Shown piece after piece: positions 14,763 through 53,525 of a stretch of 64,000 nt of DNA. The position numbers and the translations under genes are program-made. The stretch's first letter is position 1, and each line of letters begins with the position of its first letter. The notes below the pieces were generated by a model, which worked only from the letters and a program-made list of their open reading frames with translations, was not told the DNA's origin and did not search any database. This DNA is from a virus (lineage: Duplodnaviria; Heunggongvirae; Uroviricota; Caudoviricetes). The stretch lies in IMG/VR virus record IMGVR_UViG_2541047873_000001; one strand, given 5' to 3'.

Positions 14763-15469
14763 TGGATATCTGCATTCTCGAAAAACTATCAATGACCAGC
14801 ATTGAGATTGCGGAGCTGGTGGGAAGTCAACACTCTGACGTTAAACGTAGTATTGAGCGTATGGTTGCTCGAAGCATTATCCGAAAACCGCCAATGGCTG
14901 TTTTCGAAAAAATCAATAACTTAGGATTGCGTCGTGGCGTTGAGGCTTACGTCTTCGAAGGCGAGCAAGGCAAACGAGACAGCATTATTGTCGTTGCGCA
15001 GCTCTCTCCGGAATTCACCGCCCGGCTGGTGGACCGCTGGCGCGAACTGGAAGAACAAGTACGCCAGCCGTTGACCGAAATAGAGATGATCGCTGCAATG
15101 GCTGCGAATGCAGTTCAGCAGCAAAAGCGGCTTCATGCTGTTGAGTCAAAGGTTAGCCAGGTCGCTGAAACCGTCGAGCAGATCAAGAAAGGCAACATAC
15201 CAGAAGGCTACATTGGCTACCGCCAACTGGCGGCGAAATGCGGCCTGACTGAAGCCAAATGCCGTAACCTGGTCAACGCTTACCGGATCCCCACAGATAC
15301 GCATGAGTTTTTGACGCCAGAGGGGGTATTGTCGCGTCGTACTATTGTGGCCTTATCTCCCTTCATGAATGCCTTTACCCTGATGATGTCGGAGGCTGAA
15401 CACCGAGGAAAACGCTGGTATCACCCAAGGATGGGGCAATTCCAGGTAATCGGTTGGGGAGGCGAGTGA
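14762..15469 (+). CDS. ant: Antirepressor, Rha/Ant family
   Basis: N-terminal TSIEIAELVGSQHSDVKRSIER (Rha-type) and conserved central/C-terminal blocks shared with 52584..53525. Confidence 0.7.
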   Translation: MDICILEKLSMTSIEIAELVGSQHSDVKRSIERMVARSIIRKPPMAVFEKINNLGLRRGVEAYVFEGEQGKRDSIIVVAQLSPEFTARLVDRWRELEEQVRQPLTEIEMIAAMAANAVQQQKRLHAVESKVSQVAETVEQIKKGNIPEGYIGYRQLAAKCGLTEAKCRNLVNAYRIPTDTHEFLTPEGVLSRRTIVALSPFMNAFTLMMSEAEHRGKRWYHPRMGQFQVIGWGGE

Positions 15470-15666
15470 TGGACATCATGCAGGCGGTAAAAAAAATCAG
15501 GGAAGGACAGGCTGAAGTGTGCCGCCGTAAAGCATGGAGTGTTGGTGTATGGGTCTGGCCTGATAATAGCTCTACTACTGGATGGTTTTGTATTAATGGA
15601 TACCAGATCCGGGAAGTCGATTTATCGACGGCGGATGCAGTCGGTAATGATTGGATCGTAACTTGA
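15454..15666 (+). CDS. Small DUF2829-like (Tad2-like) protein
   Basis: 70 aa, AVKKIREGQAEVCRRKAW...DAVGNDWIVT; homologous to the C-terminal extension of the second Ant copy. Confidence 0.45.
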   Translation: MGRRVMDIMQAVKKIREGQAEVCRRKAWSVGVWVWPDNSSTTGWFCINGYQIREVDLSTADAVGNDWIVT

Positions 15667-15674
15667 AGTGTGAT

Positions 15675-15699
15675 GCCCCGGCTTGGCCGGGGCTTTTTT
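15675..15699 (+). terminator. Rho-independent terminator
   Basis: gccccggcttggccggggc hairpin plus a T6 run, between convergent genes. Confidence 0.65.
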
Positions 15700-16183
15700 A
15701 TGCCTCATTAGTTGAGGTTGCTGCGTCTCCGACTGGTAACAGAGCTGTATTGCGTGGTTCGCCAGCAGGCCAGCGATAGCCAGACACTCTTGATGTTGGG
15801 AATGCGCGAATATTAACAGCATCCCCCTGGTTCCCACCCAAGACAAGCAGATCGCCATTGGCGCGGTGTCCGACAACAAAGCCTACATGCCCACCGCCTG
15901 CGCGAGTAAATACAACGATACATCCGTATGCCGGTGTATCTAATTTCTCGCCCCAATCCAGATAGGATTTTGCCGACTCAAATCTTGTTGAGCGGATACC
16001 TACACGTTCCAGCATTGCACCAACAAATGCAGCGCACCACGGCGTTTCGTCGTCTTTAATTCCGCTGCGCTTAATATCCCGCCAGAACTGAACGATCTCA
16101 GGATTGTGTTTCGCTCCTTTTATTTCGGTGACTCCAATATTTTTACGGGCCTCAATAAGCCAGCGAGGTTCAATGTTTGCCAT
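15698..16183 (-). CDS. Cys/His cell-wall hydrolase candidate (NlpC/P60 or CHAP-like, TIGR02594-type)
   Basis: 161 aa with PWCAAFVGAMLE and GHVGFVVG motifs typical of papain-like peptidoglycan hydrolases. Confidence 0.45.
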   Translation of the reverse strand: MANIEPRWLIEARKNIGVTEIKGAKHNPEIVQFWRDIKRSGIKDDETPWCAAFVGAMLERVGIRSTRFESAKSYLDWGEKLDTPAYGCIVVFTRAGGGHVGFVVGHRANGDLLVLGGNQGDAVNIRAFPTSRVSGYRWPAGEPRNTALLPVGDAATSTNEA

Positions 16184-16320
16184 ATATTTCTCCCGCTCAT
16201 GGGTTAATAAGTAGGCAAACTATGGTGAGTATGTGATTTTGACGGTAGTGTCGTTCATCCCTGAAAATAACATTCTCCATACCCTCTCAAACCGAACCGC
16301 TTAAGGCGGATTTAACGGTT

Positions 16321-19300
16321 TTGAGGGGGCTTCCTTTGGACAAAATAATTGATTCAATTAGCCAGGCCACCAGCATTGGGGCGCTGATTGAAATTGTTAG
16401 TCGGTTGCATAAACCGCGAGCTGTAGTGACCTTTGGCGTTAAGAAAGTCGATGGCGTCAGTATTCAGAAAACACGCCGGACAGCAAACAACGCCGCAGTA
16501 GATCTTCTTAATTCCCTTCCGCCCGGCTTCGATGGAGCGAAATTAACTGACGAACAGCGTCAGATTCTTGCCGGGTATACCGGTGAAGGCGGCCTGACAG
16601 ATGGTGAGGGCAGCCAATACGAATACTATACGCCACAGTTTATGGCAGAAGGTATATGGGATCTCTTCGGCGACTACGGTATTGATAGCGGTCACGTACT
16701 GGAACCGTCAGCAGGCACAGGTATTTTCCAGGAGACAAAACGGCAGGGCATGATAATGACCAGCGCCGAACTGTCTCCGATCTCCGGTCGAATAAACCAG
16801 CTTTTGCACCCGGAAGATGATGTGAATATCGGGGCGTTTGAGGCGCTGGCGGCGAAAGATGCAATGTATGACCACGCAGTTGGTAACGTACCGTTTGGCG
16901 AAGGGCGTTCCGGCGTCGCCGGGCTTGATCCGGCATATGCAAACGAGAAGAACGTTGGCAATTATTTTGTGCTGCGCACGATCGACAAGGTTAAGCCTGG
17001 TGGGCTAATTGTATTGGTGGTGCCGAATGGCATGACCGATGGTACGAAATACAAAAAATTGCGCGATAAAGTCAGCCGTAAAGCGGAATTTTTGGGCGCG
17101 CATCGTATGCCTTCTGGTACGTTCAGCGAATCCGGTACAGATACCGTGGTGGACGTATGGGTATTGCGTAAACACCCGGAAACCTTCCTGGAGATGATCC
17201 CCGACACGGATGATGCAACGCTCAAATCGGCAAACGTCCTTTGGGATACCTTCCTCAAAGGGAAATGGTTTACAACCGAAGGGAAGCGATTTGTTTACGG
17301 CGACATGGAACGCACCAGCTTCCGCAATACCCTGGTGGTGAAAAAGGACGGTCGTGTATCCAATGAGTCGATGAAAACCGCGTTATCACGCCGCTTTGAA
17401 AGCCGTATTAATTGGGATTTGCTCGGAGTAACTACCCAGGCATGGCAGGGCGCAAAAGTAGGGGATAAGCGTCTTGTAGGCGGTATCTGGCATGAGTTTG
17501 ATGGCCTGAAATGGGTTAAGGACACGACAACCAAATCCTCCGCGCTTGATGTAAGTCGATATGGTGTTTCGACGTTTGGCGATCTGCAGATCGCGTTCCA
17601 GTCAACAAACGGGATTCTGGCTTTGTCATGGGACCAGATATCGGCGATCGCGTCCGACTATCCATCGGTTGTCAGTGATGAAGTGGCAGCAATGATTCGC
17701 TTTGCTGGCAAACAGCGAGAAAAAGACAGGGAGCGCGTTATGCGCGGTGCGTTGATAGGGCAGTTGATCAACAAGGCACTTGATTTGCGTAACCTGGGGG
17801 TGAACGTTGATGACAAACTGGCAGATGCATCCCGCCTGGCGGCAGCAGAAGTTGCGAAGTATGGACCACCGCACGCGATTAAGCTGAATGGGCTTGCTGA
17901 AGCTGGCGCTAAAAACTGGATGACGTTCACTGGCAATGTGAAACAGGATGGTTCCACTTCTGACCTTCTGGCAGGGCGACTTGATGTAACGGATGGTGCT
18001 GCCGGTATTGACTTTACACGTCCGGAACAAGTGATAGCACATCTTTTCAGTGATGTAGCCCTTAATCCTATAACGCTGGGCGACTTTCGTGAGGCGTTTG
18101 CTGGTGAACTGCCAGAGGACGACGACGCGGCCCTTGAATACCTGGCGAAATTTGATGATATCGCTATTGATGGGTATGGCTGCCTGCTGCCGATGGACCG
18201 CGCCACCAGCGGCGATATTGTAACCAAAACAGCATTGCTGGTGGGCTGGCGTGATGCATCAACAGGTGAGCAGAAAGCGAACTTTGAGCGTCAGTTGGCG
18301 AAAATCGAAGAGAAACGCATTTTCACGCCACTAAATAAAGTCACCGTTAATCTGAACGCCCGCTGGCTGGATCGCCGCTTGATAAAAGAGTTCCTGGCAG
18401 AGCAGGGCTATGACGAGTTTAAGTACACTGAACCTGATCTGAAGGTCGTCGATGGCATTCTGGTATCTCCGGACGATTACGAAGGTAAGGACGGGGTATT
18501 TACCGGCTATCAGCTACGAACCGTAAACGGCAAAAACGGGAATGAGTTCAAGAAGGCCAACAATAAAGACGGCTTCCTGAACCAGTTAGAAAACTACCTG
18601 AACGGTGTTAAACCGCGTGGGCAGAACGCTAACGAGTACCTGGATAAAATTGCTCAACTGGAAGTTAGCTTTAACGACTGGTTACGCACCCACCCGCAGG
18701 CGGATCAGATAGCCCGTGACTATAACGACGCATTCAATGGCTTCATTCCGTTCACGCACTCTAACGCACCGCTTGGCCTGGAAGGGATTAGTGGAAAGCG
18801 CATTCCTCTGACTTATCAGAATGAAGAAGTTCGTCGCTTATCAGAAGATGGGCGCGGCATCATGGGATTTGGCACCGGGCTGGGTAAAACCACGACCGCG
18901 CTTGCGCTTGAGGCGTATAACTTCGAAACAGGTCGTACTAAACGCACGTGTATTGTTGTTCCGAAGGCGGTTTATCAGAACTGGTATCACGAGGCACAGA
19001 GCTTCTACAGTGCTGATGCCTTCGCCAATATGATGTTTATCGGTCTGGATGAAGTTCGTGATGACAGCGGAAATATTCTGACCGCTCCGGTGCTTGATGA
19101 AAATGGCGAACCCCGCCTCGACAGTAACGGGCAGCCTCTTACCAGAAATGTTGTGAAAGAGTCCGCCAGCGCCGTTATCGTTCAGCGCATGAACATGATC
19201 CCGTCGTCAAATTGGCGAACGGTCATCATGACAAAAGAACAATTCGCGTCTATCCCGCTACGAGAAAAAACCATCGAGGAGAACTCACAGCAAGCTGTCT

Positions 19301-22300
19301 TTAATGCTGTGGAAATGGGGCGTCTTGACCTGGCGTCTGGTAAACACCGTGATGCGCAGAAGAAGAACAAGATTAAGGATCAGGCCGCGAATACCGGTAC
19401 AACGAAGAAGCAGAATATCCCGTACTTTGAGGATATGAACTTCGATAGCGTGATAGCCGACGAGGGGCATAACTACCGCAACTCCTTTAATGCCGGGCGT
19501 GAAGCGGGACAACTGGCATATTTGCCTAACCCGGCAGTATCCAAGATGGCCCGCGACATGGCTGTAAAAGCTGCGTACATGATGAAACGCAACAACGGGC
19601 GTGGTGTAGTCATGCTGACGGCAACACCGCTGGTGAACAGTCCGATTGATGCCTTCAACATGCTGTCTACTGTCATTCCGCAGGAAGAGTGGATGCGCAT
19701 GGGCATCATTACGCCTGATGATTTCGTTCGTGTGTTTGGTAAAACAGCCACAGTTCAGGTCCAGAAAATTTCCGGGGAAGTGGAAGAGAAGCAGGGGCTG
19801 GTTGGCTTCCAGAACCTTGATGGCCTGCGTGGCATTTTCCATCGCTGGACTACTCTGAAGACTGCTGCGGACGTCGGGGCGACGGTTAAAATCCCTGATA
19901 TTGTCGAGAATACCTTGCAGATCCCGATGACAGGGGAGCAGGAGGCTGCTTATGAAGAGCTTCGTAAGCGTGCACAGGAGTTAAGTAGTAAAGATGCGCT
20001 GACGGTTGATGAAAACGGGCATATCACAAACGAAAAACCGGATGATTTCATCTTCTCCATCATCCGCGACATGGATAAGGTTGCTATAGATCCGGATCTG
20101 TATGCCAGTGCGATTACATTCCAGTTCCCCGTTGAGCTTGCAGACAAGGTAAAAGCTATTGCTGATGCCCTGCCAAAAGTAGCTGGCGGTAAAGTGGCAG
20201 ATGATGCAGACGAGGCCGAAGAAGACGGCGCTGGTGGGCTGGTTAGTACGCGCACCAGTAAGGTAGTGAAGACCACCTTTAGTGAACATCCGGCGCATGT
20301 TGAAATACGTGCCAGCATTGAACTGGAAGCTGAAATACTGAAGGCCATTGCTGCCGCCGGGATTGATATGCAGCAGGTATCACACCCAATCCCGCCGAAG
20401 TATGCCGCGCTGATCGAAAACCTTCGTGAAGGTCTGAAGAACGGTAAACAAATTGTCTTCATTGATGAAAAAGCCCAGCACCAGAAGCTGCGCCGTATTA
20501 TCGCCAGTGCACTGCAAATGCCGGAGCAGGAGATAGGCATTATCAATGCGACGACCGTTAGCCAGGCTGGCGGCATCAAGCTGAAGAAGGTGAATAAGCC
20601 GACTGAACCTACTCCGAATAAAAACGGTGAATACAAAGAAGGGGCATGGGAAACCTACTACAGCAAACTTGCCCAATATGAGGATTATCTCTCAGCTAAA
20701 AATGATGCTGGCCTTGAGGGTATGGAAGGCATTGCCGCCGACTATAACGAAGGGCGCACGCGCATAATTATCTGTAACAAGAAGGCTGAAGTAGGTATTA
20801 ACCTGCATATCGGGACAACCGATATCCACCACCTGACACTACCCTGGACACCAGCCAGTATCGACCAACGAAATGGGCGCGGTGCGCGCGTAGGTTCACC
20901 GCAAGAGAAGGTCAATGTTCACTACTATTGTGGCAAAGGCACATTCGACGACTTCCGTCTGGATACGCTGAAACGTAAGAAAGACTGGATCAAGATGGTG
21001 ATGACCTCCGACATGTCAGAGATCGCCAATGGTGATGCGGATGATGCTGATGAACGCGCCATTATGCTGGCGGCAAACCCGGAAGAACGCCGCGCAATCA
21101 TGGCTCGCCAGGCGCAAGAGCGTGAAGAACGTCTGAAACTGAAAGCACAGCGCGAGGCCAACAATGCTCTCGATATCTACCTGAAAGCGGCAAACGCCGC
21201 TGGAAAAGATATCGGCATGATGGAGACAGAACTGAAAAGCGCGATGGAACAGATAGAGTATTACCAGCGAAATCTTGACGACCTGATAAAAGCGGGTACG
21301 AACAGGAATGGGCAAAAATTCGCGCTTGAGCAGTTGAGTAGCTACAGAAAACGTGCGCGGGTGCTGCGGTTTGCGATCACCAGGGCAAAAGACGCGGATA
21401 CCATAATGAAACGCTCTCGTGGTGATGTGGAGCGCGCTATTAAGTCTGGTGTGCTGGATATCAGTATCGATGTTATTCAGAACCCACAGGAATATATGCG
21501 CACTGACAAGAATATCCTGTTGCATAAAGGTAGTTATTACCGTGCAGTCATTGATGATCGCGAAACAACAGCGATTGTCCGGGTGGAAAAAATTGACGGT
21601 GAAAAAGCACAATACCTCTGCCGTATCGCCTGGCTGGATAGAGCAAGTCGTTACGCTCGATCACCGGGGTCAATCGTTACATTGCCGTTTGACTCTGTGA
21701 TTGAAGCGGTAACTTTTGAAGAGGGGGTAGCTGAATCGCGCGCAACGGCTGCGCGTGGTGTTCAGTGCCACCAGCTATCAACAATACTTACTCGCGATCA
21801 GTTCTATGATGCTATTCGCAATGGGGTAATGAATGTTATTGCTGGTAAACCTGGTAATGCATGGGGCGGTGGGTCAGCTATTAAATACTGGGCATATCGT
21901 ACAGATGATGGTCAGATCGCGCTGTCATCGGCCTATGATGGCGTGATAGGCCAAAAAATCGGGCGAGCATCGGATATAGCACCTGAACGATGGATATATC
22001 CAGATGGCAACGATGAGGCGCTGAAGCGTGAAGTGGCAAAAATACAAGCCAGTGATAACCCGCTGAATATCGTGGACGGCGAGGGATTCCTCCAGGCATT
22101 GTATGGGTATGATTACATCCAGGGAATGCAGGCATGGGGCGCACAGGCAACGATGGATGATGTTGTCCAGGAGTTCGAAAACTGGATGGCTGGGCGTGGT
22201 CTGTCAGGTCGTTCGCTTAATAAAGTCACTTCTGAAGATATTCTTAGCTTGTTCCGCAAACCGTCCGGAGAAGGTCTGGAATCATTCTGGAGGACCGTGC

Positions 22301-23172
22301 TGGCATACCGTTTATTCAAGGGCAGAATGAAAGCCTTTAGCAATATCGATGATATTGAACGGATGTTTAATCAGGTCAAGATCGCCAAAATTAAGACGAA
22401 GATCGAAAAAACACGTTCTGCGCTGGTGGCCTGGCGCGATGCATTGTTTGAGCAATATAAATCACTCAGTGATGCAGATGGATGGGCGGCATTGGAACAG
22501 TTGGCGAATAATGGGGTAGATGGAGCGAAACTCGCCATAGTCCAGGCTGATAACCCCCTGGAATCACCGGCAGCACAGTGGATTAAGGTGGGGGCTGTCA
22601 TCAATGCATTTGATGAAAAACACATTAGTAAGGACGATTTTGCTGATGCTGTTTCTGTTAATCGCCTGGTAGAAATGGCTACCCGCCGCGCCCGTGAGTT
22701 GAAAGACGGTGACTATGTGAATGAGTTGCCGGATGCGCTCAAATCAGCAACGTGGCAAGACTATGTATCGCTGAAAAACGGCGGGGCAACCGAATCAGAG
22801 ATCGCGGAAAGGCTTGAACAGGCTGAAAGCAAAAGAGAAGAGCAGGCGGCAGTGGCTGAAGCCAGAGCTGATGAAGCGGCGAATGATGACTATATCATTG
22901 TGGTTAATGATAAGCCGATTCGCGCTAAGGCGCGTGTTCGCGGGCGCTGGTGGAGTGTCAGCGAGGACGTCGGTGCGGTTTATCTCATTGCCGACCAACC
23001 TGGTTCCTCGACAATACGGAACGCCAAAGACGCGATTAAGAAGATTGGCGGGCGTTTCTGGAATTTTGAAGCAAACCCGGTTGCTGATGTGAACTTTGAC
23101 CGTCCTGCATGGATGGTATCTACGCGTTACTCGGTAGATGAACTGCGTAAAATAATCGCCGATGCGGCCTAA
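16321..23172 (+). CDS. darB: DarB-type antirestriction protein (N6-adenine methyltransferase plus DExH helicase)
   Basis: 2283 aa; SAM motif EPSAGTGIF and NPPF-like GNVPFG; Walker A GFGTGLGKTTTA and DEGHNYRN box. Start is uncertain (TTG at 16321 or 16336). Confidence 0.8.
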   Translation: MRGLPLDKIIDSISQATSIGALIEIVSRLHKPRAVVTFGVKKVDGVSIQKTRRTANNAAVDLLNSLPPGFDGAKLTDEQRQILAGYTGEGGLTDGEGSQYEYYTPQFMAEGIWDLFGDYGIDSGHVLEPSAGTGIFQETKRQGMIMTSAELSPISGRINQLLHPEDDVNIGAFEALAAKDAMYDHAVGNVPFGEGRSGVAGLDPAYANEKNVGNYFVLRTIDKVKPGGLIVLVVPNGMTDGTKYKKLRDKVSRKAEFLGAHRMPSGTFSESGTDTVVDVWVLRKHPETFLEMIPDTDDATLKSANVLWDTFLKGKWFTTEGKRFVYGDMERTSFRNTLVVKKDGRVSNESMKTALSRRFESRINWDLLGVTTQAWQGAKVGDKRLVGGIWHEFDGLKWVKDTTTKSSALDVSRYGVSTFGDLQIAFQSTNGILALSWDQISAIASDYPSVVSDEVAAMIRFAGKQREKDRERVMRGALIGQLINKALDLRNLGVNVDDKLADASRLAAAEVAKYGPPHAIKLNGLAEAGAKNWMTFTGNVKQDGSTSDLLAGRLDVTDGAAGIDFTRPEQVIAHLFSDVALNPITLGDFREAFAGELPEDDDAALEYLAKFDDIAIDGYGCLLPMDRATSGDIVTKTALLVGWRDASTGEQKANFERQLAKIEEKRIFTPLNKVTVNLNARWLDRRLIKEFLAEQGYDEFKYTEPDLKVVDGILVSPDDYEGKDGVFTGYQLRTVNGKNGNEFKKANNKDGFLNQLENYLNGVKPRGQNANEYLDKIAQLEVSFNDWLRTHPQADQIARDYNDAFNGFIPFTHSNAPLGLEGISGKRIPLTYQNEEVRRLSEDGRGIMGFGTGLGKTTTALALEAYNFETGRTKRTCIVVPKAVYQNWYHEAQSFYSADAFANMMFIGLDEVRDDSGNILTAPVLDENGEPRLDSNGQPLTRNVVKESASAVIVQRMNMIPSSNWRTVIMTKEQFASIPLREKTIEENSQQAVFNAVEMGRLDLASGKHRDAQKKNKIKDQAANTGTTKKQNIPYFEDMNFDSVIADEGHNYRNSFNAGREAGQLAYLPNPAVSKMARDMAVKAAYMMKRNNGRGVVMLTATPLVNSPIDAFNMLSTVIPQEEWMRMGIITPDDFVRVFGKTATVQVQKISGEVEEKQGLVGFQNLDGLRGIFHRWTTLKTAADVGATVKIPDIVENTLQIPMTGEQEAAYEELRKRAQELSSKDALTVDENGHITNEKPDDFIFSIIRDMDKVAIDPDLYASAITFQFPVELADKVKAIADALPKVAGGKVADDADEAEEDGAGGLVSTRTSKVVKTTFSEHPAHVEIRASIELEAEILKAIAAAGIDMQQVSHPIPPKYAALIENLREGLKNGKQIVFIDEKAQHQKLRRIIASALQMPEQEIGIINATTVSQAGGIKLKKVNKPTEPTPNKNGEYKEGAWETYYSKLAQYEDYLSAKNDAGLEGMEGIAADYNEGRTRIIICNKKAEVGINLHIGTTDIHHLTLPWTPASIDQRNGRGARVGSPQEKVNVHYYCGKGTFDDFRLDTLKRKKDWIKMVMTSDMSEIANGDADDADERAIMLAANPEERRAIMARQAQEREERLKLKAQREANNALDIYLKAANAAGKDIGMMETELKSAMEQIEYYQRNLDDLIKAGTNRNGQKFALEQLSSYRKRARVLRFAITRAKDADTIMKRSRGDVERAIKSGVLDISIDVIQNPQEYMRTDKNILLHKGSYYRAVIDDRETTAIVRVEKIDGEKAQYLCRIAWLDRASRYARSPGSIVTLPFDSVIEAVTFEEGVAESRATAARGVQCHQLSTILTRDQFYDAIRNGVMNVIAGKPGNAWGGGSAIKYWAYRTDDGQIALSSAYDGVIGQKIGRASDIAPERWIYPDGNDEALKREVAKIQASDNPLNIVDGEGFLQALYGYDYIQGMQAWGAQATMDDVVQEFENWMAGRGLSGRSLNKVTSEDILSLFRKPSGEGLESFWRTVLAYRLFKGRMKAFSNIDDIERMFNQVKIAKIKTKIEKTRSALVAWRDALFEQYKSLSDADGWAALEQLANNGVDGAKLAIVQADNPLESPAAQWIKVGAVINAFDEKHISKDDFADAVSVNRLVEMATRRARELKDGDYVNELPDALKSATWQDYVSLKNGGATESEIAERLEQAESKREEQAAVAEARADEAANDDYIIVVNDKPIRAKARVRGRWWSVSEDVGAVYLIADQPGSSTIRNAKDAIKKIGGRFWNFEANPVADVNFDRPAWMVSTRYSVDELRKIIADAA

Positions 23173-24080: not shown

Positions 24081-24094
24081 TGTGTTAGAAATTT
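24081..24094. promoter_or_regulatory. Operator-like site (TGTGTTAGAAATTT)
   Basis: Reverse-orientation copy of the dispersed motif, overlapping the start region of the VRR-NUC gene. Confidence 0.5.
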
Positions 24095-24095
24095 G

Positions 24096-24539
24096 ATGCG
24101 AAGACGCAGGCATCATAGTGCGTATTCTGAAATATCCCCGCACGCTGCTGCACTGAGAGAGTTAGAAAGAAATCCTGACTTATTAAAACGGAATTACGAA
24201 CATTACGAACAGGTTCGCGTTCTGGATTGGCTGTATCGCAACATGCGATACGTGTATGAGCACACACACTCAACACCGAACGGCGGCCTGAGAGGCAAAA
24301 GGACAGCCATTAAGATGGTGGCAGAAGGTCAGAAGAAGGGCTATCCGGACCTTTCTATTGACCTTGCTCGTGGTGGGTATCACGGAATGCGCATTGAGAT
24401 GAAGCACGGGAGAAACCGTCTGACTCCCGAACAGCTCGTCTGGATGACTCGCCTCACGGAAGCAGGCTATTACTGCTTTGAGGCGCGCAGTGCCGATGAA
24501 GCCATAAAAGCTATCACGGAATATGTAAATCTTGATTAA
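24096..24539 (+). CDS. VRR-NUC domain nuclease
   Basis: GYPDLSI...GMRIEMKHGRNRLTPEQLVWM matches the VRR-NUC PD-(D/E)xK signature. Confidence 0.6.
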   Translation: MRRRRHHSAYSEISPHAAALRELERNPDLLKRNYEHYEQVRVLDWLYRNMRYVYEHTHSTPNGGLRGKRTAIKMVAEGQKKGYPDLSIDLARGGYHGMRIEMKHGRNRLTPEQLVWMTRLTEAGYYCFEARSADEAIKAITEYVNLD

Positions 24540-24553: not shown

Positions 24554-24754
24554 TTGCGTTTACTTAACGTGGCTGAACTTATCCCTGCCGGTGCTAACGT
24601 TGTTGCTCGTCGCTGCTCATGGCCTCATTCTTTCTGTATAGAGCTTAAAAAGATGGATGATGGGGCATTAGAAGCCCGAAACATAGTTACCGGCGACAAG
24701 GTATGCATTACCCCGGAAAGCGCGAAAGCCAATGATTGGGAGTTTGTTCATTGA
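24554..24754 (+). CDS. Small DUF2829-like (Tad2-like) protein
   Basis: 66 aa, AELIPAGANVVARRCSW...AKANDWEFV; TTG start with GGAG RBS (GTG at 24569 is an alternative). Confidence 0.4.
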   Translation: MRLLNVAELIPAGANVVARRCSWPHSFCIELKKMDDGALEARNIVTGDKVCITPESAKANDWEFVH

Positions 24755-25062
24755 GCAGAAAACACCACGTAAATCTGACGTTTGCTGATGACGCCGGAAG
24801 AACCAGAAGCATAACCATGAAAGTTGCTTCCAGGAAAGTAACCGCGCCACTTATACGAGAGGCCGTAAGTGAACTTGATATGAGTGAGAATGCAGCTCTG
24901 TTATCGGTAAGCTGGCTGGGGAAAATGACGGATCAGGAATACTCGGATGGTATACCCCACGGTGAGCGGCAGATAGTAAAGCGCGCGTTTAGAATTTCAG
25001 AGGTAGTTGTCGTACTGATAGCTTTGATTTATATGGCATACATGCTACTCCAACACGTCTAA
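24736..25062 (+). CDS. Hypothetical protein with C-terminal TM anchor
   Basis: 108 aa; C-terminal VVVLIALIYMAYMLL hydrophobic helix. Confidence 0.35.
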   Translation: MGVCSLSRKHHVNLTFADDAGRTRSITMKVASRKVTAPLIREAVSELDMSENAALLSVSWLGKMTDQEYSDGIPHGERQIVKRAFRISEVVVVLIALIYMAYMLLQHV

Positions 25063-27726: not shown

Positions 27727-27803
27727 GATGGTGTAGCTCAGTAGGATAGAGCAGCAGCCTTCTAAGCTGTCGGTCGGTGGTTCGAATCCACCCACCATCG
27801 CCA
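27727..27803 (+). tRNA. tRNA-Arg (anticodon UCU)
   Basis: Hand-folded cloverleaf: acceptor gatggtg/caccatc, D arm gctc/gagc, anticodon loop cuUCUaa, T loop ggtgg-ttcgaat-ccacc, encoded CCA. Confidence 0.8.
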
Positions 27804-27808
27804 ATTTA

Positions 27809-27895
27809 GGGGAGTTAGTCCGTAGGGGTAGCGGGGTAGACTGTAAATCTACTGTCATTGCGACTCGGATGGTTCGACTCCATCACTCCCCACCA
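27809..27895 (+). tRNA. tRNA-Tyr (anticodon GUA), long variable arm
   Basis: Acceptor ggggagt/actcccc, anticodon arm gtaga-cuGUAaa-tctac, long variable arm, T arm gatgg-ttcgact-ccatc, CCA; resembles E. coli tRNA-Tyr. Confidence 0.7.
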
Positions 27896-27899: not shown

Positions 27900-27975
27900 G
27901 CCGGTTTAGCTCAGTTGGTAGAGCGCCTGCCTTGTAAGCAGGATGTCAGCGGTTCGAGTCCGTTAACCGGCACCA
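27900..27975 (+). tRNA. tRNA-Thr (anticodon UGU)
   Basis: Acceptor gccggtt/aaccggc, D loop agctcagttggtagagc, anticodon arm cctgc-cuUGUaa-gcagg, T loop ttcgagt, CCA. Confidence 0.85.
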
Positions 27976-27983: not shown

Positions 27984-28056
27984 GGTAAGGGTATTTTGCG
28001 ACGTCGGAGATCGCCGAGCTTGGCAGAGGGTTCGAATCCCTACGAAGTACCCTTAC
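27984..28056 (+). other. tRNA-like element or pseudo-tRNA (T arm plus 10-bp terminal stem; no anticodon arm, no CCA)
   Basis: ggtaagggta...tacccttacc terminal helix encloses a gggttcgaatccc T-arm-like hairpin; too short for a complete tRNA. Confidence 0.25.
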
Positions 28057-28163
28057 CGTTGTGATGAATGCACAGGCTGATGTGCCGCAACTACAGTAGT
28101 GCGCGCTTTGCGGGGCTTGCTACAACCCTGTGTCGGAGTTCAGCACCGACCATCACAATCACT

Positions 28164-28250
28164 GGAGAGTAGGGAGCATGGTGCTCAAGCGGTCTTGAAA
28201 ACCGTCCCATTGCGCAAGCGATGATGGTTCGATTCCATTACTCTCCGCCA
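28164..28250 (+). tRNA. tRNA-Ser (anticodon UGA), type II
   Basis: Acceptor ggagagt/actctcc, anticodon arm gcggt-cuUGAaa-accgt as in E. coli tRNA-Ser(UGA), long variable arm, T loop ttcgatt, CCA. Confidence 0.7.
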
Positions 28251-28679
28251 GCGCAACGTTAAGAGTATTTGGCTAATTAAGCGAATGCCGGAAGCAGAAC
28301 CGGATCACCAAATGCGTACAGGCGTCATCGCCGCCCAGTCAGCCAAATGCTCTTACCATTGCGGTGAATGCGGCTAAGCGCACGCGGAACAGTTAAAACA
28401 GTAAAGGTGGTCTTTTTACTGGCGTAACGAGAATCCATAAGTGATCCGGCGTTAATTGTTAACTGGTTAACGTCACCGGGAGGCACCCGGCACCGCAACC
28501 TAACAGCAATGGCGTTTTGTCTTAAAAGGTGGCTGCAAGTGATGGATTTTTGGGCGTTTGCCGATAAAAACCCGGAGTGGACATTATTGTTTCTGCTGGT
28601 GGTTGCATACGGGGTAGAGCAAGCGGCAAAAGCCTTACGCGGTTCTGGCAAAAAGCGTAAGCGTAATTAACAGTAATCT

Positions 28680-28755
28680 GGCCCTTTAGCTCAGTGGTTA
28701 GAGCGGGCGACTCATAATCGCACGGTCACCGGTTCAAGTCCGGTAGGGGCCACCA
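28680..28755 (+). tRNA. tRNA with CAU anticodon, most like tRNA-Ile2 (AUA-decoding); elongator Met not excluded
   Basis: Near-complete resemblance to E. coli ileX-type tRNA as I recall it (GGCCCUUUAGCUCAGUGGUUAGAGC...CUCAUAAUCGC...GGUUCAAGUCC...GGGGCCACCA). Confidence 0.8.
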
Positions 28756-29207
28756 CATTTGGTTGTAACACGGCGTATGGCACATGCGTCGTTAGCGGTC
28801 TGGTGTAGCTGTTAGGTACCTTTTACTAACACTGCATGGGCACACCAGGTAGCCGGAATGTGCAAGCCCCGTTCATAGCGTCGGACTGCGGATTCACCAT
28901 CCTGGCGATTCGGTGTGACAGCCGGAAGAGCACGGCGTACAACAGGAAAAGGCGTTTAATTAGCGTGAGCGCCGTTTCCGTTGTGGTAATTGCGGCTATG
29001 CGCTCGTGACGAAGCCATTTTCATTCACTACGTTCTGATAAGTGTCGTCGCCGGGCGTGGCTAACCTGGCAGGTGGAGGCACCACCGCCACAACTCCTTT
29101 CAATTCATCATATAGCCGCTCAGGCTGTAACCCTTAATTAATACGAAGTTACGACGTCACTACCGGTTCAGCCGGGGGATAGTCGCGCGTGTAAAAAAGG
29201 AGACGTT

Positions 29208-29783
29208 ATGTTAACGGCGAACGATAACGCGTATTTAGAAGATGATCTCGTTTTGAGTGACTTTATAGGGCGACGAGAATGCTGGACGCAAAAGCGCGAG
29301 GAGCTTTATGCAGCGTTAGTTCGTAAAGGCGTCAACATCGAAACCGCACAGAACGGTGATATGACAGTGGTAAGTGTTGGACTGCACGGCGTAAGTGTGT
29401 CAGCAATCAATCATGAGCCGTACATTGCGTTATCCGAGTCGATGGTAAGGTTAGTTAAGTTCCTGAAGTACACAGAAGCGAATAACGTGCTCATCGCCAA
29501 AAAGAACATCCCGTTCTCATCGGCCTTTTACTGGATGATGAAGGGGCTTGATGCCCGGCGAACATCATGGCCTAAAGGGAGCTATATATCGATGCTCCGT
29601 GGCAGTGTTGGTAGCAAAGAAAAGCTCGTCGAATTCCTGCCGGAAGAGGCATTCGATATTGTTGAAGGTTGTGATGTGATGGTTATGCCTCGCCTGGTAA
29701 TGATGAATGGGGATTTACAGGCGCAGACAGACTGGTTTGCAACTGGAGTTGATATTATCGCTACTGACTGGGAGGTTTTTTGA
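29208..29783 (+). CDS. Hypothetical protein with C-terminal DUF2829-like module
   Basis: 191 aa; AAGGAG RBS; C-terminus FYWMMKGLDARRTSW...DIIATDWEVF. Confidence 0.45.
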   Translation: MLTANDNAYLEDDLVLSDFIGRRECWTQKREELYAALVRKGVNIETAQNGDMTVVSVGLHGVSVSAINHEPYIALSESMVRLVKFLKYTEANNVLIAKKNIPFSSAFYWMMKGLDARRTSWPKGSYISMLRGSVGSKEKLVEFLPEEAFDIVEGCDVMVMPRLVMMNGDLQAQTDWFATGVDIIATDWEVF

Positions 29784-30163
29784 TGTACGAGGCTACTAAA
29801 TTACGCACTGAGGATGCGATGCACATTGGTTGGGACATCATCACCTGCAAGATAACATCATGCAAGGCTACACGCACAGACGCCGGACACAAGAGCACAA
29901 TATCAGGTTATGTCGTGATGTCAGTCAGGAGTGTGCGCATACGCTTCAGATGGAAAGCCAGCCAGGTTACATCATCAATGCCGCTTACCGTCGAGCAGGA
30001 TTATTTATGCTTACCCGAAATAGACGGAGCGTTGCTGGTGGGCAATAGTGGTCGAAAAGCCGATTTTGAAGCCAGTCTGAAGATGGCGCAGGCGGTGATC
30101 AACAAACATAAAGGGAAGTGGGAGGCAAAAGTTAAGCATGTTGTTCGTTTATCCCGCTGGTAG
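29780..30163 (+). CDS. Hypothetical protein
   Basis: 127 aa, start overlaps the upstream stop. Confidence 0.35.
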   Translation: MMYEATKLRTEDAMHIGWDIITCKITSCKATRTDAGHKSTISGYVVMSVRSVRIRFRWKASQVTSSMPLTVEQDYLCLPEIDGALLVGNSGRKADFEASLKMAQAVINKHKGKWEAKVKHVVRLSRW

Positions 30164-30194
30164 TGTTAGCAAATTGATATTAATTTTCTAATAC
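30163..30194. promoter_or_regulatory. Bipartite operator upstream of the lpa-like/pac operon
   Basis: gtgttagcaaattgatattaattttctaata inverted half-sites. Confidence 0.5.
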
Positions 30195-30270
30195 ATCATG
30201 TTTTTGACAGTCTTCTCAGTATTAACAAGCTGATTATCATCCCCTCGGTCTTTTTCTATCCGGGGGATAA

Positions 30271-34834: not shown

Positions 34835-34986
34835 GGCTATAATCTCCAGTAAACAGGCAGTATTGACAAGGATGAAAAATCATGCCTCGAATCAAAGGCT
34901 TGAATTTTGAAAATTAACTTATAACTACCCTGTCAGTTTTCTATTTTTCACGTAGCGTTATCTGTATATAGAGGTTTAATAGTTTC

Positions 34987-36015: not shown

Positions 36016-36016
36016 A

Positions 36017-36030
36017 TTAATTTTCTAACA
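36017..36030. promoter_or_regulatory. Operator-like site (AATTAATTTTCTAACA)
   Basis: Motif copy immediately after the recombinase stop. Confidence 0.45.
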
Positions 36031-36087
36031 ATCTTTTTAGACAGTGCATTTTAATGTAAAGTACCCTCGCCTATTGCGGAGGGTACT

Positions 36088-37408: not shown

Positions 37409-37422
37409 GTAGAGGAAAGGCT

Positions 37423-38073
37423 ATGAATAACATGCCAACGAAAGAGCTTTTTAAGTTCCTTCCCAAATACAAAGCTCACAAAAACGTTAGTGCATCGAAA
37501 ATCAAAAATGTTGTTATTTTCGGCGTAACTGATGCCCCACTTTGGGGCTGCATCGAACTCGTTGAACCAAAAGGGGCAACAGTTTGTGTTGACGCAATGT
37601 TTTTACAAAAACACCGACCAAAAACTGGCGGGTATCTGATCGTTTATGAAAACGGTTATCTGTTCTATGCCCCGGAGAAACCATTTGAGGAATGCTATGG
37701 CCTGGTTAACGACGCCTCCAAAAATGGAACCACGGTCATCATTACGGATGACAACGGCGTGATGATTAATCTTACTGGGAGCGTAACTATTTCTGCTGGT
37801 GGCATCACCACCCAGCAAGAAGAAATCGACCTTGAAGCAGCCGACTTCTCTGATGCGCTAATGTGGTTGAAGGAAGGCAAGAAAGTTGCCCGACGCGAGT
37901 GGAAAGGCGAAAAGCAATTCTGCTGGTTAGTTCTCGCTGGAAGCGTCAATTTACACGGCATTCACGTTCCTTATGGTGACCATTTTGTATTGAAAGATGC
38001 ACAAAATATGGACAGCGTTTGGTTGCCGTCTGTGGATGATTTACTGGCCTGTGACTGGTTTGTTGTGGAGTGA
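37423..38073 (+). CDS. Two-domain protein with C-terminal DUF2829-like (Tad2-like) module
   Basis: C-terminus FSDALMWLKEGKKVARREWKG...DDLLACDWFVVE. Confidence 0.5.
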   Translation: MNNMPTKELFKFLPKYKAHKNVSASKIKNVVIFGVTDAPLWGCIELVEPKGATVCVDAMFLQKHRPKTGGYLIVYENGYLFYAPEKPFEECYGLVNDASKNGTTVIITDDNGVMINLTGSVTISAGGITTQQEEIDLEAADFSDALMWLKEGKKVARREWKGEKQFCWLVLAGSVNLHGIHVPYGDHFVLKDAQNMDSVWLPSVDDLLACDWFVVE

Positions 38074-38079
38074 TTTAAC

Positions 38080-38877
38080 GTGGAAAATACCAAGAACATT
38101 CAATATCGCCTGCGTAACGGCCTGCTGGTGGATGTAAACGATGATATGTCCCTGCCCTTTGCCACCATTGAGCGAACCATCCTTACATACCTGGGTTTAG
38201 ACGAAGAGTTAGATAGTGAGAATGGCATTGCTATCTGGCGTGACGGAAAAACGGGAGTCAGACGTTTTATTACGGCAAGAGGCATTCAGTGCACACAGGA
38301 AGAATTGTTTGAACTGGCGCAGTCTTATGGATGCATCGCGTTAGATCCCCTGCATGACCCAGCCATAGCGCAACAACTCATTCGAGAGCTGTCGCTTTCG
38401 GTCACGCCAATAATCTTCCGCCAGGGAACCTTAACCGGCACATGGCGTGTAGAACGCATCTCTAAATATCAGCCATATAATATCCATTTGAACGGCACTA
38501 TTACTGGTGTGGATCAACCAGTAGCAGGTGAAAACAAAGACCTGGAACTTGCAGTAATGATGGCTGCTTGTCGCGTGCTTGGCCTGGGCAAGCAGATGTT
38601 TATCCATTTCCCAAACGGCGCGGAAGGCGAAGTAGAGCTGATTTCCTGCGACTTTTCCTTAACCTGGATGCTTGATGAATTCCTGGACAAAACAGTATTC
38701 CGTGCTGAAGAACTGGATATGTATGTCACCTCAAGTATTCCTAATGACGTGAAAGTTGAGGCCATCGCTACAGCCAGGGCGAAATGCCGTGCGGCGATTG
38801 CAGAACAGGCCAAAGAAGAACAGTCCGATGAAGTCGCGGCAGATGTGGAAGCAGAGGATGCTGATGCTGACGCCTAA
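38080..38877 (+). CDS. Hypothetical protein with acidic C-terminal tail
   Basis: 265 aa; GTG start; terminator downstream. Confidence 0.4.
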   Translation: MENTKNIQYRLRNGLLVDVNDDMSLPFATIERTILTYLGLDEELDSENGIAIWRDGKTGVRRFITARGIQCTQEELFELAQSYGCIALDPLHDPAIAQQLIRELSLSVTPIIFRQGTLTGTWRVERISKYQPYNIHLNGTITGVDQPVAGENKDLELAVMMAACRVLGLGKQMFIHFPNGAEGEVELISCDFSLTWMLDEFLDKTVFRAEELDMYVTSSIPNDVKVEAIATARAKCRAAIAEQAKEEQSDEVAADVEAEDADADA

Positions 38878-38928
38878 AAGCAAGAAATTAGCTGGCTGAC
38901 AGCAGAAAAAATCATTGAGTGATAGTAG

Positions 38929-38958
38929 GAAGCCCGCTTGGTTGAGCGGGCTTCTTTT
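38929..38958 (+). terminator. Rho-independent terminator
   Basis: gaagcccgcttggttgagcgggcttc hairpin plus a T run. Confidence 0.55.
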
Positions 38959-39338
38959 CAAATATTGGAACCATATAGTTCACGTAGTTTTTCCGCTACT
39001 GAAGATACGGGGATTTCACCAGTTGCAGCCCCCACCGCAAGTTCCACCAGCACGGGAGAATCATATACCTGTATACCGTTACGGCGTAGAAATAGCAGCG
39101 CACTGTTTAGCGCGGTACGCTTATTGGCATCATTGAATATATGCCCTCTCGCTGTAGCCACCAGGTAGGTGGCGGAGACTTCGAAAAGGTCGGTGATCTC
39201 TTCGTAGGCAACTCTGGCCTGAACTCTCCCGATAATGGCCTCTGCCCTACCCGGATCTGACATTCCCGGCAGGCCGCCGTAGCGGTTTATATTCGCATCA
39301 TGAAGCGCAATAAGTTCTTCCGGTGATATATGCCTCAT
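38958..39338 (-). CDS. doc: Doc toxin (Fic/Doc family)
   Basis: 126 aa, near-identical to P1 Doc as remembered ([17 protein letters not shown]...[15 protein letters not shown]). Confidence 0.9.
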
Positions 39339-39559
39339 TATCGGTTAACCAGTTCCTTGTTGGTGGAGTCCAGGGTGTCAAACAGGGATGCAAATTCAGC
39401 ATCCAGCGCCGCTTTTTTGTAGGCTTCGAAAGTAGCCTTGCTGACAATTACTGCTGGCTCACGGCCTCTGCGGGTGATTTCAACCTCTTCCCCTGCTTCA
39501 ACATTATTGAGCACTTCGCTAAGGTTGCCGCGTGCGGTACGGAAGTTAATGGATTGCAT
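39338..39559 (-). CDS. phd: Phd antitoxin
   Basis: [39 protein letters not shown]; ATG at 39559 (the ORF-track start is an upstream GTG); stop overlaps the doc start. Confidence 0.9.
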
Positions 39560-39565
39560 AAACAC

Positions 39566-39592
39566 CTCGTGTACTCGTTATGTGTACGCAAT
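39566..39592. promoter_or_regulatory. Putative Phd/Doc operator (repeated GTGTAC half-sites)
   Basis: cgtgtactcgttatgtgtacgca directly upstream of phd. Confidence 0.4.
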
Positions 39593-39667
39593 TATAGGTT
39601 TTAATGATGCTGAATACCACTTCTTGGTGCCTTAAATCCTCGAGATGCAGTCTTGCAATTGCTGGGA

Positions 39668-40090
39668 TTAAGCAGAATAAGTGGTTGGAATTCTGAGCAG
39701 TAATCCAATCTTGGCTATGTGCTCATATGGCAGCTCTCCGGTTTTACCATCATGTATCGAGGCTATCAGATTCAATTCATGCGCCGCTTTACGAATTTCA
39801 GTTTCTGATGGAACAAGGCGAAAACCGATGGGTAACATTTTGATATAGAAAGGTAATAGTTCGTACTTCACCCGTAACTGTGCTGCCGCATCTTTCAAAT
39901 CATGGATGATTTCTTGTTTTAAGTCAGAGCGGGGATTCGATAGCTTTGCTTGGTTAGACAATAACAGATGCGATATTTCCCCCAACTGTTCCTTGAATGA
40001 AATGTAAGACTCAACCCCCTTGATGATGAGTCGACCTAGGACAAAAACGCTTACTCCAGTGACAACAGTGACAAAAGCAGACGAACTCAT
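39668..40090 (-). CDS. Small membrane-anchored protein of unknown function
   Basis: 140 aa, N-terminal TM helix, somewhat AT-rich; inserted between phd-doc and humD. Confidence 0.4.
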   Translation of the reverse strand: MSSSAFVTVVTGVSVFVLGRLIIKGVESYISFKEQLGEISHLLLSNQAKLSNPRSDLKQEIIHDLKDAAAQLRVKYELLPFYIKMLPIGFRLVPSETEIRKAAHELNLIASIHDGKTGELPYEHIAKIGLLLRIPTTYSA

Positions 40091-52055: not shown

Positions 52056-52160
52056 GAAAACACACAGTTGCGCCCTGGCATTATCGTGGGGTATATTTCT
52101 ACGGCACCTTAGAAAAACGGGTGCCGGGATTGGAACCCCGGATAATGCAAAAGGCGACAC

Positions 52161-52184
52161 AGACGCCGAAAGCGTCTTTTTTTG
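52161..52184 (+). terminator. Rho-independent terminator
   Basis: agacgccgaaagcgtct hairpin plus a T7 run. Confidence 0.6.
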
Positions 52185-52199
52185 TGTCATGCCATCGCA

Positions 52200-52345
52200 C
52201 AGCCATGCGTAGCGTTTAGCTCAGAGATCAATGGTAGTGCTGGCTGGGCTGCCGAAAGGCAGGCCGGTTCCCTTTTGCGCCGGTAGTTCCAACCCAGTCA
52301 GTGCTACCGCCATTGAGATTGGAACCTCACGCGGTAGCTCCTTAA
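52200..52345 (+). ncRNA. Candidate C4-like antisense RNA or immI leader, second copy (approximate bounds)
   Basis: GAAA-loop hairpin ggctgccgaaaggcagcc-like and elements complementary to the icd RBS region (ggaggctgcc); same architecture as 14285..14520. Confidence 0.3.
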
Positions 52346-52368
52346 ATTAGCAAAAGGAGGCTGCCAAT

Positions 52369-52584
52369 ATGGCTACTATCCCTACCCCAACTCATTCTGA
52401 ATTTATCTGGCGTTTCTATTCCTGCCAAAAACACCTCTATATCTGCGTAATGGCTGCTACCGAAGCAGAGGCGCGCTCATACCTTCCCGAAGAACCCTGT
52501 ATTTTTGCTGCTCGCTTCACTCTTGATGCGATGGAGATCCTCAATTACTGGAATCTGCCGATGAACTGCGTGGAGGTGCACTGA
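52369..52584 (+). CDS. icd: Icd-like cell division inhibitor, second copy
   Basis: 71 aa, paralog of 14538..14762; overlaps the start of the second Ant gene. Confidence 0.55.
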   Translation: MATIPTPTHSEFIWRFYSCQKHLYICVMAATEAEARSYLPEEPCIFAARFTLDAMEILNYWNLPMNCVEVH

Positions 52585-53525
52585 TGAATCTGTCCATCTC
52601 TCAAAAAGCGACAATGACCAGCATTGAGATCGCGGAACTGGTGGGAAGTCGTCACTCTGATGTTAAACGCAGCATCGAAAGACTTGTTGCTAAAGGAGTT
52701 ATCCAACATACGCCATTGGCTACAGTTGAGAATAATCAATCACTTAGCCCTAATAAATACACAAAAGCCTATTTCTTCGAAGGCGAACAAGGCAAGCGCG
52801 ATAGTATTATCGTCGTCGCGCAGCTCTCTCCGGAATTCACCGCCCGGCTGGTGGACCGCTGGCGCGAACTGGAGAATGTCAGGGGACCGTTAAAATCAAA
52901 AGCCGAAATCCTGGCTGAAATGGCGCAAATGCATCTTGAGCATGAACGCAGGATCAACGCCGTAAATGCCCAGGTAGCCGAGGTATCGGCACAAGTGTCC
53001 AGGGTCACCGAAACACTTGAGCAGATCAAGAAAGGCAATATTCCAGAAGGCTACATTGGCTATCGCCAGTTGGCGGCAAAATGCGGCCTGACTGAAGCCA
53101 AATGCCGCAACCTGGTCAACGCTTACCGGATACCCACTGATACGCATGAGTTTTTAACTCCCGACGGTTTGCTTGCGCGACGCTCCATTGTGGCCCTGGC
53201 CCCCTTCCGGAAAGCCTTTAAGCAGGTTATGTCGGAGGCAGAACCACGTAACAAACGCTGGTATCATCCCAGGATGGGGCTATTTCAGGCCATTCACCAT
53301 CCTGTGCCTGAAAGTCCAAAGGCAAACCTGTCGTTGCATACCGCCAGAGAGAAGATTAAAACAGGGTATGCAACCGTATGCCGTCGAGCATCCTGGCCTG
53401 AAAGTGTCTGGGTATGGCCCGAAAGAGGCTCACGGAAAAACTGGCGCACCATTCGCGACGGCAAGATCTGTGCGATTGATTTACAGCCAGAAGATGTAGC
53501 AGCGACCGACTGGATTGTTAGTTAA
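52584..53525 (+). CDS. ant: Antirepressor (Rha/Ant family) fused to a C-terminal DUF2829-like module
   Basis: Rha-type N-terminus; 56-bp block identical to the first ant; C-terminus TVCRRASWPESVWVWP...AATDWIVS. Confidence 0.7.
   Translation: MNLSISQKATMTSIEIAELVGSRHSDVKRSIERLVAKGVIQHTPLATVENNQSLSPNKYTKAYFFEGEQGKRDSIIVVAQLSPEFTARLVDRWRELENVRGPLKSKAEILAEMAQMHLEHERRINAVNAQVAEVSAQVSRVTETLEQIKKGNIPEGYIGYRQLAAKCGLTEAKCRNLVNAYRIPTDTHEFLTPDGLLARRSIVALAPFRKAFKQVMSEAEPRNKRWYHPRMGLFQAIHHPVPESPKANLSLHTAREKIKTGYATVCRRASWPESVWVWPERGSRKNWRTIRDGKICAIDLQPEDVAATDWIVS

Follow-up and report, generated by a model that had tools for sequence, protein, structure and literature searches.

The window analyzed here is a 64,000-nucleotide (nt) stretch of caudovirus DNA (IMG/VR record IMGVR_UViG_2541047873_000001). 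It is a D6-type, P1-related phage-plasmid of Escherichia coli. It encodes five diverged paralogues that probably all share the Tad2 fold. They belong to one domain family with two classes. The long class contains copies 3 and 4, and the short class contains copies 1, 2, and 5, which are 65 to 68 amino acids (aa) in length. The two classes most likely do different jobs, and we give this account a probability of roughly 0.55. The long domains may act as sponges for immune signals. The short domains may instead be compact modules for protein interaction or assembly.

Among the protein families with which phages soak up bacterial immune signals, Tad2 is a major one, and its members are identified in surveys by the Pfam family PF11195 (Tad2-like, DUF2829). 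The fold has a helix at the N terminus, an antiparallel sheet of five strands, a short helix, and a final strand with DW-x-V. An initial annotation of the window had described five open reading frames (ORFs) with a DUF2829-like signature and had suggested that they might be several sponges with different ligands. All five ORFs were present at the positions given there with the motifs quoted, and no sixth copy was found in the six frames. The reading of five Tad2-fold modules is supported. The reading of several sponges with different ligands is not supported as stated.

Sequence and fold of the five modules

The six-frame scan covered 1,153 fragments of the window. A hidden Markov model (HMM) built from the short forms alone matched copies 1, 2, and 5, with copy 3 as the sole extra match (E = 4.5e-5). 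When three solved Tad2 sequences alone were used for the HMM, it matched copy 4 (E = 2e-11) and copy 3 (E = 6e-3) and nothing else. A regular expression for the motif matched the true copies exclusively. Pairs were also compared by Smith-Waterman alignment against 1,000 shuffles. The z-score was 22 for copies 1 and 5, 11 for copies 2 and 5, and 6.0 for copies 2 and 3. It was 4.5 for copy 3 with either copy 5 or copy 4. ModTad2 gave a z-score of 6.6 with copy 3 and 29 with copy 4. Direct pairs of copy 1 or 2 with copy 4 or ModTad2 were not significant in this test. The significant pairs form a connected chain in which copy 3 bridges the two groups. The signature is therefore real and not compositional.

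PF11195 has a gathering cutoff of 25 bits. Copy 4 scored 66.7 bits and copy 3 scored 40.4 bits (E = 4.4e-10), both above the cutoff. Copy 1 scored 16.1 bits (E = 0.016) with the full profile covered, and the copy 5 module scored 10.7 bits. Copy 2 had no match to PF11195. This family was the consistent top sub-threshold match for the short forms, with full profile coverage. NCBIfam (release 20) contained no family for any of the five copies.

Word-indexed homologue searches retrieved close relatives only, and the short-form alignments, used as profiles against PDB sequences, gave nothing informative. An exhaustive HMMER search with a short-form profile covered 1.84 billion cluster representatives. 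It retrieved 15 matches, about nine of which were credible. Several of the 15 were spurious matches to long repetitive proteins, and one of these (P0016) was an Ig-repeat protein. A distant relative of copies 1 and 5 (P0019) scored 23.9 bits on PF11195 and is a second bridge between the classes. Profile-profile comparison linked the copy 2 family to the copy 1/5 family (P = 5e-6; 86%) and the copy 1/5 family to the solved Tad2 proteins (P = 4e-4; 36%). The copy 2 family was not significant against the three solved Tad2 sequences in hhalign (P = 0.023).

The solved structures 8SME, 9EIB, 8KBI, and 8WJD were the references for the fold. Their topology is alpha1, antiparallel beta1 to beta5, and alpha3. 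Predictions for copies 1 and 2 used alignments of short-form sequences alone. These alignments held no canonical Tad2, so the predicted fold carries no Tad2 bias. The AlphaFold2 (AF2) model of copy 1 had a predicted local distance difference test (pLDDT) score of 96.1. It contained a helix, four strands, a short helix, and a strand. In a Foldseek search of the PDB with this model, the top 23 matches were all Tad2/AcrIIA7 chains (template modeling [TM] score, 0.71 to 0.77; probability, 1.0), and the matches below them were noise. We conclude from the model that copy 1 has the Tad2 fold, and we extend this to copy 5 by its identity of 40% to copy 1 (E = 3e-18).

Foldseek with copy 2 did not retrieve Tad2, and the fold evidence from copy 2 itself is not unique to Tad2. 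Copy 2 very probably has the Tad2 fold because its sequence is linked to copies 5 and 3. The fold of copies 3 and 4 is predicted from alignment to PDB chains at the sequence level. Copy 4 aligned with ModTad2 (9EIB; E = 7.5e-11) and SPO1 Tad2 (8SME; E = 5e-6) and weakly with AcrIIA7/HgmTad2. Copy 3 aligned weakly with SptTad2 from end to end (E = 0.5).

The null results for copy 2 bear on another reading. The short modules, and copy 2 above all, could be unrelated beta-rich proteins that are not homologous to Tad2 and that acquired the RR..W and DW.V motifs by convergence. The connected chain of significant pairs, which runs from copy 2 through copies 5 and 3, and the profile link between the copy 2 and copy 1/5 families make this very unlikely. 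Common descent of all five modules is preferred. These results bear on three points raised in the initial annotation. The shared signature goes beyond composition by the shuffles, the six-frame HMM scans, and the regular expression. Membership in DUF2829 by Pfam search holds for copies 3 and 4 and fails for copies 1, 2, and 5, which are below the cutoff. The comparison of predicted structures with Tad2 bears out copy 1 and returned no Tad2 for copy 2.

Ligand-site residues and the long forms

The ligand site of SPO1 Tad2 is known for glycocyclic ADP-ribose (gcADPR). W25 and W73 sandwich the ligand through van der Waals contacts, and N26 and D79 make polar contacts. D79 binds the hydroxyls and phosphates of the ligand. 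N26 is a mutation-sensitive contact to the diphosphate and is invariant in the solved sponges. S76, T78, D67, H71, I63, and T65 also contribute. The HgmTad2 mutants W21A/N22A and S90A/T92A/D93A lost binding. The gcADPR site is predicted to be missing from only about 1% of Tad2 proteins. Cyclic dinucleotides bind in a second Tad2 pocket, which is built by the beta2-beta5 insertion. The beta2-beta3 loop and alpha2 form a V-shaped dimer interface. The homotetramer is formed by alpha2/beta2 dimers and the interlock of alpha1.

We mapped these residues onto the five copies. The SPO1 numbering is valid because all named residues fall on the right letters in the map. None of the five copies has the full gcADPR residue set (W25-N26, W73, and S76/T78/D79). 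W25 is present in all five copies, and four of the five have the equivalent of D79. N26 is replaced in every copy (K, P, S, P, and P across the set).

Copy 4 keeps W25, W73, S76, and D79. It has K in place of N26, and its insertion is short. Copy 3 keeps W25, W73, and D79. It has P in place of N26 and T in place of S76, and its insertion is as long as that of SptTad2. By this map, the pocket of copies 3 and 4 is largely intact but altered. Copy 1 keeps W25, S76, and D79, with V at position 73. Copy 5 keeps W25 and D79, with I at position 73. Copy 2 keeps W25 alone. All three short forms lack W73, alpha2, and the whole beta2-beta3 loop with its insertion. Because the beta2-beta3/alpha2 loop and W73 are lost, the short forms cannot build the established pockets as the characterized Tad2 proteins do.

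SPO1 Tad2, ModTad2, HgmTad2/AcrIIA7, and SptTad2 are phage-encoded sponges with the same fold as the modules described here. The long forms are closest to them, passing the Pfam cutoff and keeping W25, W73, and D79. Copy 4 is about 40% similar to ModTad2. Copy 3 resembles SptTad2, a dinucleotide-binding sponge, in its long beta2-beta3 insertion. The characterized sponges differ in being free-standing homotetramers of about 90 to 105 aa with an invariant W-N pair, whereas three of the five copies here are fusions and the Asn of the pair is replaced throughout. The short forms differ further in their size, in the loss of alpha2, the insertion, and W73, and in falling below the Pfam threshold.

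We infer that the long domains, as true PF11195 members, bind a small molecule derived from nucleotides and serve as immune-signal sponges. Their specificity or assembly probably differs from that of the characterized sponges, since these domains lack the conserved Asn after W25 and are joined to N-terminal domains. The short domains would be a lineage-restricted minimal version, in which the core fold was kept and the insertion and W73 were lost. They would not be canonical sponges for gcADPR or cyclic dinucleotides.

The residue map also bears on the wider reading in which all of the modules, or at least four, are immune-signal sponges with diversified ligands. They would then form a broad arsenal against Thoeris, CBASS, and Pycsar. 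The Tad2 family is versatile; its members bind gcADPR, His-ADP-ribose (His-ADPR), N7-cyclic ADP-ribose (N7-cADPR), cyclic dinucleotides, and cyclic UMP (cUMP), sometimes in separate pockets. The retention of W25 and of most D79 equivalents would fit such an arsenal, as would the conservation of the set since the split from D6 and the presence of other anti-defense genes (the Dar system and Ulx) on the same element. We consider it improbable. The short forms lack W73 and the insertion that makes both the dimer interface and the dinucleotide pocket. N26 is replaced in five of five copies, while only about 1 in 100 Tad2 proteins is predicted to lack a working gcADPR site. Copies 3, 4, and 5 are fusions, and copy 2 lies inside a morphogenesis-type block and not in an anti-defense island. 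The suggestion of five sponges is not supported, and we prefer separate roles for the long and short classes.

Copy 3 is a 191-aa protein (29208..29783, plus strand; D6 orf6). Its residues 1 to 97 form an N-terminal domain without an assigned family. The long Tad2-like domain occupies residues 98 to 191 (nt 29499 to 29780) and is the part that matches PF11195. The gene lies upstream of lpa and pacAB. RefSeq names it "MW1434 family type I TA system toxin." No NCBIfam match was obtained, so this toxin name is not backed by the current library and is not used here. It appears to be a legacy label for DUF2829 and probably misleads.

Copy 4 is a 216-aa protein (37423..38073, plus strand; D6 orf114). 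It contains a weakly Dec-like region in residues 1 to 135 and a canonical Tad2-like domain in residues 136 to 216 (nt 37828 to 38070), which matches PF11195. The RefSeq name of the protein is DUF2829. The gene lies between dut and an isaA-like gene. The N-terminal part (window positions 37423 to 37827) has no match in Pfam. Residues 100 to 130 contain many short T/I/G beta-like repeats. The D6 orthologue is 146 aa long and is shorter by about 70 residues in its N-terminal part, so the N-terminal part of copy 4 is variable.

Tad2 proteins fused to a Dec-like (6E3C) or PF21825 domain were left out of the largest Tad2 survey (Hadary et al. 2025, bioRxiv 10.1101/2025.08.24.671296). Copy 4 resembles this class in that its Tad2 domain is C-terminal and follows a weakly Dec-like region. 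It differs in that its similarity to Dec is marginal, no Pfam model matches, and the D6 orthologue has the shorter N-terminal part. We know of no study of the function of this fused class.

Operons and neighbors of the short forms

Copy 5 is a 313-aa Rha-type antirepressor (Ant; 52584..53525, plus strand; D6 orf82). The short module forms its C-terminal 68 aa (residues 246 to 313; nt 53319 to 53522). The assignment of this gene as an antirepressor in the initial annotation was confirmed by Phage_pRha (PF09669; score, 33.6 bits; cutoff, 29.9 bits). The module has a match at 3.3e-12 to phrog_7385, to which copy 1 belongs.

Copy 1 is a free-standing short Tad2-like protein of 65 aa (15469..15666, plus strand; D6 orf17, phrog_7385). 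The initial annotation placed the start at TTG 15454; the ATG at 15469 is most likely the start instead. It agrees with the starts in RefSeq, D6 orf17, and phrog_7385. A GGGGAGG Shine-Dalgarno sequence precedes this ATG, which overlaps the stop codon of the Rha/Ant gene before it (TGATG). The upstream gene (14762..15469, plus strand; Rha family in RefSeq; anti-repressor Ant in D6) encodes an Ant paralogue without the C-terminal module. It is 68% identical to residues 1 to 237 of copy 5 and ends exactly where the module would begin. Rha with copy 1 and the copy 5 protein are a split and a fused pair of paralogues.

Both genes are in operons of the same plan. In the first, a c4-a1b1 target element and a C4 antisense RNA (14285..14491, plus strand; Rfam RF03163, 55.2 bits, and RF01695, 69.6 bits; both above the gathering score) lie upstream of the genes. 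An icd-like gene follows (14538..14762, plus strand; a 74-aa ORF; Icd-like in RefSeq and D6). The second contains an isrK-like RNA (RF01394; 62.5 bits), a C4 antisense RNA (RF01695; 76.7 bits), and an icd-like gene (52104..52584, plus strand). Its icd-like ORF is at 52369 to 52584 (plus strand; Icd-like in RefSeq and D6). A C4 RNA and an icd-like gene precede both Ant genes, which makes these two P1-type immI operons. The c4-a1b1 target element belongs to the first (14285 to 15666), and the isrK-like RNA match precedes the second (52104 to 53525). The initial annotation had missed both the split twin of copy 5 and the placement of the pair in C4-RNA/icd/ant immunity operons.

The operons share with P1 immI (c4 antisense RNA, icd, and ant1/ant2) both their components and their order. 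They differ in that the antirepressor is of the Rha type and is unrelated to P1 Ant1/2, and in that there are two paralogous operons and not one. They also differ in that the Ant gene carries or precedes a Tad2-like module, which P1 does not have anywhere. By analogy with P1, both operons would be repressed translationally by C4 RNA in the lysogen, and the modules would be expressed together with the antirepressor. The consensus of the P1 C1 operator had no match in the window with up to three mismatches.

The icd-ant operons that encode copies 1 and 5 are C4-RNA-controlled, and the two copies most likely act with the antirepressor in the lysis-lysogeny switch. Two of the three short members are tied physically or translationally to a Rha-type antirepressor, so a partner or assembly role is the most economical reading of the short class.

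The same architecture could be read as a ligand sensor. The Ant tail (copy 5) and its split twin copy 1 would sense a host immune or stress nucleotide that switches the antirepressor on, which would couple prophage induction to defense signaling. A ligand-binding fold is fused here to a lysis-lysogeny regulator, W25 and the D79 equivalent (D56) are invariant in the copy 1/5 family, and the architecture is duplicated and is conserved in D6. Against this, the modules have lost W73 and N26 and have no insertion domain, and distant relatives occur without Ant. The searched literature held no precedent, and the idea is pure conjecture; we regard it as highly unlikely. In a variant that seems just as remote, the sensor would derive from an anti-defense sponge and gate Ant; abortive-infection signaling would then trigger induction of the plasmid prophage or a block of superinfection immunity. 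If a sensor were present, it would be a direct link between immune signaling and the lysis-lysogeny decision. A role of the short modules as partners of the antirepressor is preferred.

Modules of the copy 1 type were also seen elsewhere. Two distant P1/D6-like elements of about 90 kb carry a copy 1-like module (L006 5001 to 5291 and L007 5001 to 5207) between the major capsid/Big_2 genes and the upfC (PAAR-like)/StbA genes. The same capsid-to-partition slot in D6 contains unrelated hypothetical genes. ORFs of 81 to 83 aa named "transcriptional regulator" (P0009 and P0012) were considered as an independent architecture and rejected, as they are the isolated 3' end of the Ant-Tad2-like gene. 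Such ORFs of 81 aa (L013 3001 to 3246, L014 3001 to 3246, and L015 2985 to 3230) lie beside a 342-aa Cre-like recombinase and an insertion sequence (IS) element on other E. coli plasmids. They are apparently remnants of rearranged D6-like elements.

Copy 2 is a free-standing short Tad2-like protein of 66 aa with a TTG start (24554..24754, plus strand; D6 orf11, phrog_7206). It starts 14 nt after a VRR-NUC gene of the P1 pmgM type (24093..24539, plus strand; PF08774, 26.2 bits against a cutoff of 23.8), as the initial annotation had noted. The D6 counterpart of that gene, orf12, is described as similar to P1 pmgM. The stop codon of copy 2 overlaps the TTG start of a pmgR-like gene (TTGA). This gene (24751..25062, plus strand) was assigned by its sequence and translation and corresponds to D6 orf10, which is described as similar to P1 pmgR. 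Copy 2 would be co-translated with the VRR-NUC/pmgR block. In relatives of copy 2 at 44% identity, the protein is again exactly 66 aa long, and the gene order DarB-Ulx-x-VRR-NUC-copy 2-pmgR-like is retained.

Copy 2 and the pmgR-like gene (24554 to 25062; L012 1062 to 1570) are unannotated in the RefSeq/PGAP records of identical plasmids, which leave a gap of 630 bp from the VRR-NUC gene to the next annotated gene. The GenBank record of D6 annotates their counterparts as orf11 and orf10.

Three points weigh against the two-class account. The W25 of copies 1 and 5 and their invariant equivalent of D79 make a reduced pocket in these short forms conceivable from the residue map. In distant relatives of copies 1 and 5, the module stands alone, in an accessory slot between capsid and partition genes and away from Ant, so the short module does not need Ant. 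These relatives weaken the view of the short form as an obligate Ant subunit. The third point concerns the long forms. Residues 56 to 126 of copy 4 match residues 53 to 122 of phage L Dec (PDB 6E3C) weakly (E = 0.02; 17.9 bits). Given this match and the exclusion of such fusions from the survey, even copy 4 may not be a sponge.

The last point leads to a reading with no sponge among the five. The Tad2 fold would have been co-opted as a structural or protein-interaction domain, in a Dec-like virion protein, in an antirepressor, and beside head-completion genes. The weak Dec match of the N-terminal half of copy 4, the exclusion of that fusion class, and the loss of N26 in all copies would agree with it. 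So would the translational coupling of copy 2 to a pmgR-like gene, as P1 requires pmgR for head completion or joining (PMC9024508). The domain of copy 4 is close to ModTad2, a proven sponge, and keeps W25, W73, S76, and D79. Its Dec match is marginal, and it lies beside dut and isaA-like accessory genes and not beside structural genes. This reading is unlikely, though it ranks above the other alternatives. We retain the account in which the long and short classes have different roles.

The element and the conserved set

Positions 28000 to 40000 of the window share 99.5% identity with E. coli plasmid NZ_LR890273.1; their identity to Escherichia phage D6 is about 81%. The gene content agrees gene for gene with D6 and P1 and includes RepL, icd, ant, DarB, pacAB, a cre-like recombinase, and phd/doc, among others. 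The copy 2 region was present in 97 of 5,426 complete E. coli genomes (about 2%), every time on a plasmid.

D6 (NC_050154) encodes five syntenic orthologues. They are orf17 (copy 1), orf11 (copy 2), orf6 (copy 3), orf114 (copy 4), and orf82 (copy 5). Only orf114 is annotated with DUF2829 in D6. The nucleotide identity of D6 to the window is about 80%, and the protein identity is 94% for copy 1 and 70% for copy 2. P1, compared together with D6 and the window, contains zero copies of the Tad2-like module. This conservation in D6 and absence from P1 had also been missed in the initial annotation. A divergent 90-kb element (SRR32291423_190) encodes copy 1-like, copy 2-like, and copy 3-like genes together; it is one of the two elements whose copy 1-like gene stands alone between the capsid and upfC/StbA genes.

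A 2,283-aa DarB-like SNF2/helicase-methyltransferase protein and then an Ulx-like gene are encoded at 16321 to 23172. Both are anti-restriction genes. They lie between copies 1 and 2, so the Dar/Ulx block has a short module on either side. Four clustered tRNA genes were found with Rfam between a pmgS-like gene and copy 3 (27727 to 27800, 27809 to 27892, 27900 to 27972, and 28680 to 28752). D6 has a matching tRNA cluster.

Earlier annotations already class copies 3 and 4 as DUF2829-type proteins. Three findings are absent from the searched literature. These are the predicted Tad2 fold of the three short ORFs, the joining of such modules to an antirepressor, by fusion or coupling, within duplicated immI operons, and the conservation of the five copies as a set. 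Tad2-antirepressor fusions were not reported in any of the literature searched.

One phage-plasmid lineage had five diverged copies before it separated from D6 and still has them, and P1 has none. A stripped-down Tad2 fold of 65 to 68 aa exists under the Pfam detection threshold, and one copy of it is unannotated in RefSeq. The Tad2 fold can be wired to an antirepressor within a C4-RNA-controlled immunity operon. Should the short copies not be sponges, they would mark how far function can be deduced from a Tad2-like fold. Should the long copies be sponges, hosts of D6-like plasmids may have weaker signaling-based immunity, which bears on phage therapy and plasmid ecology.

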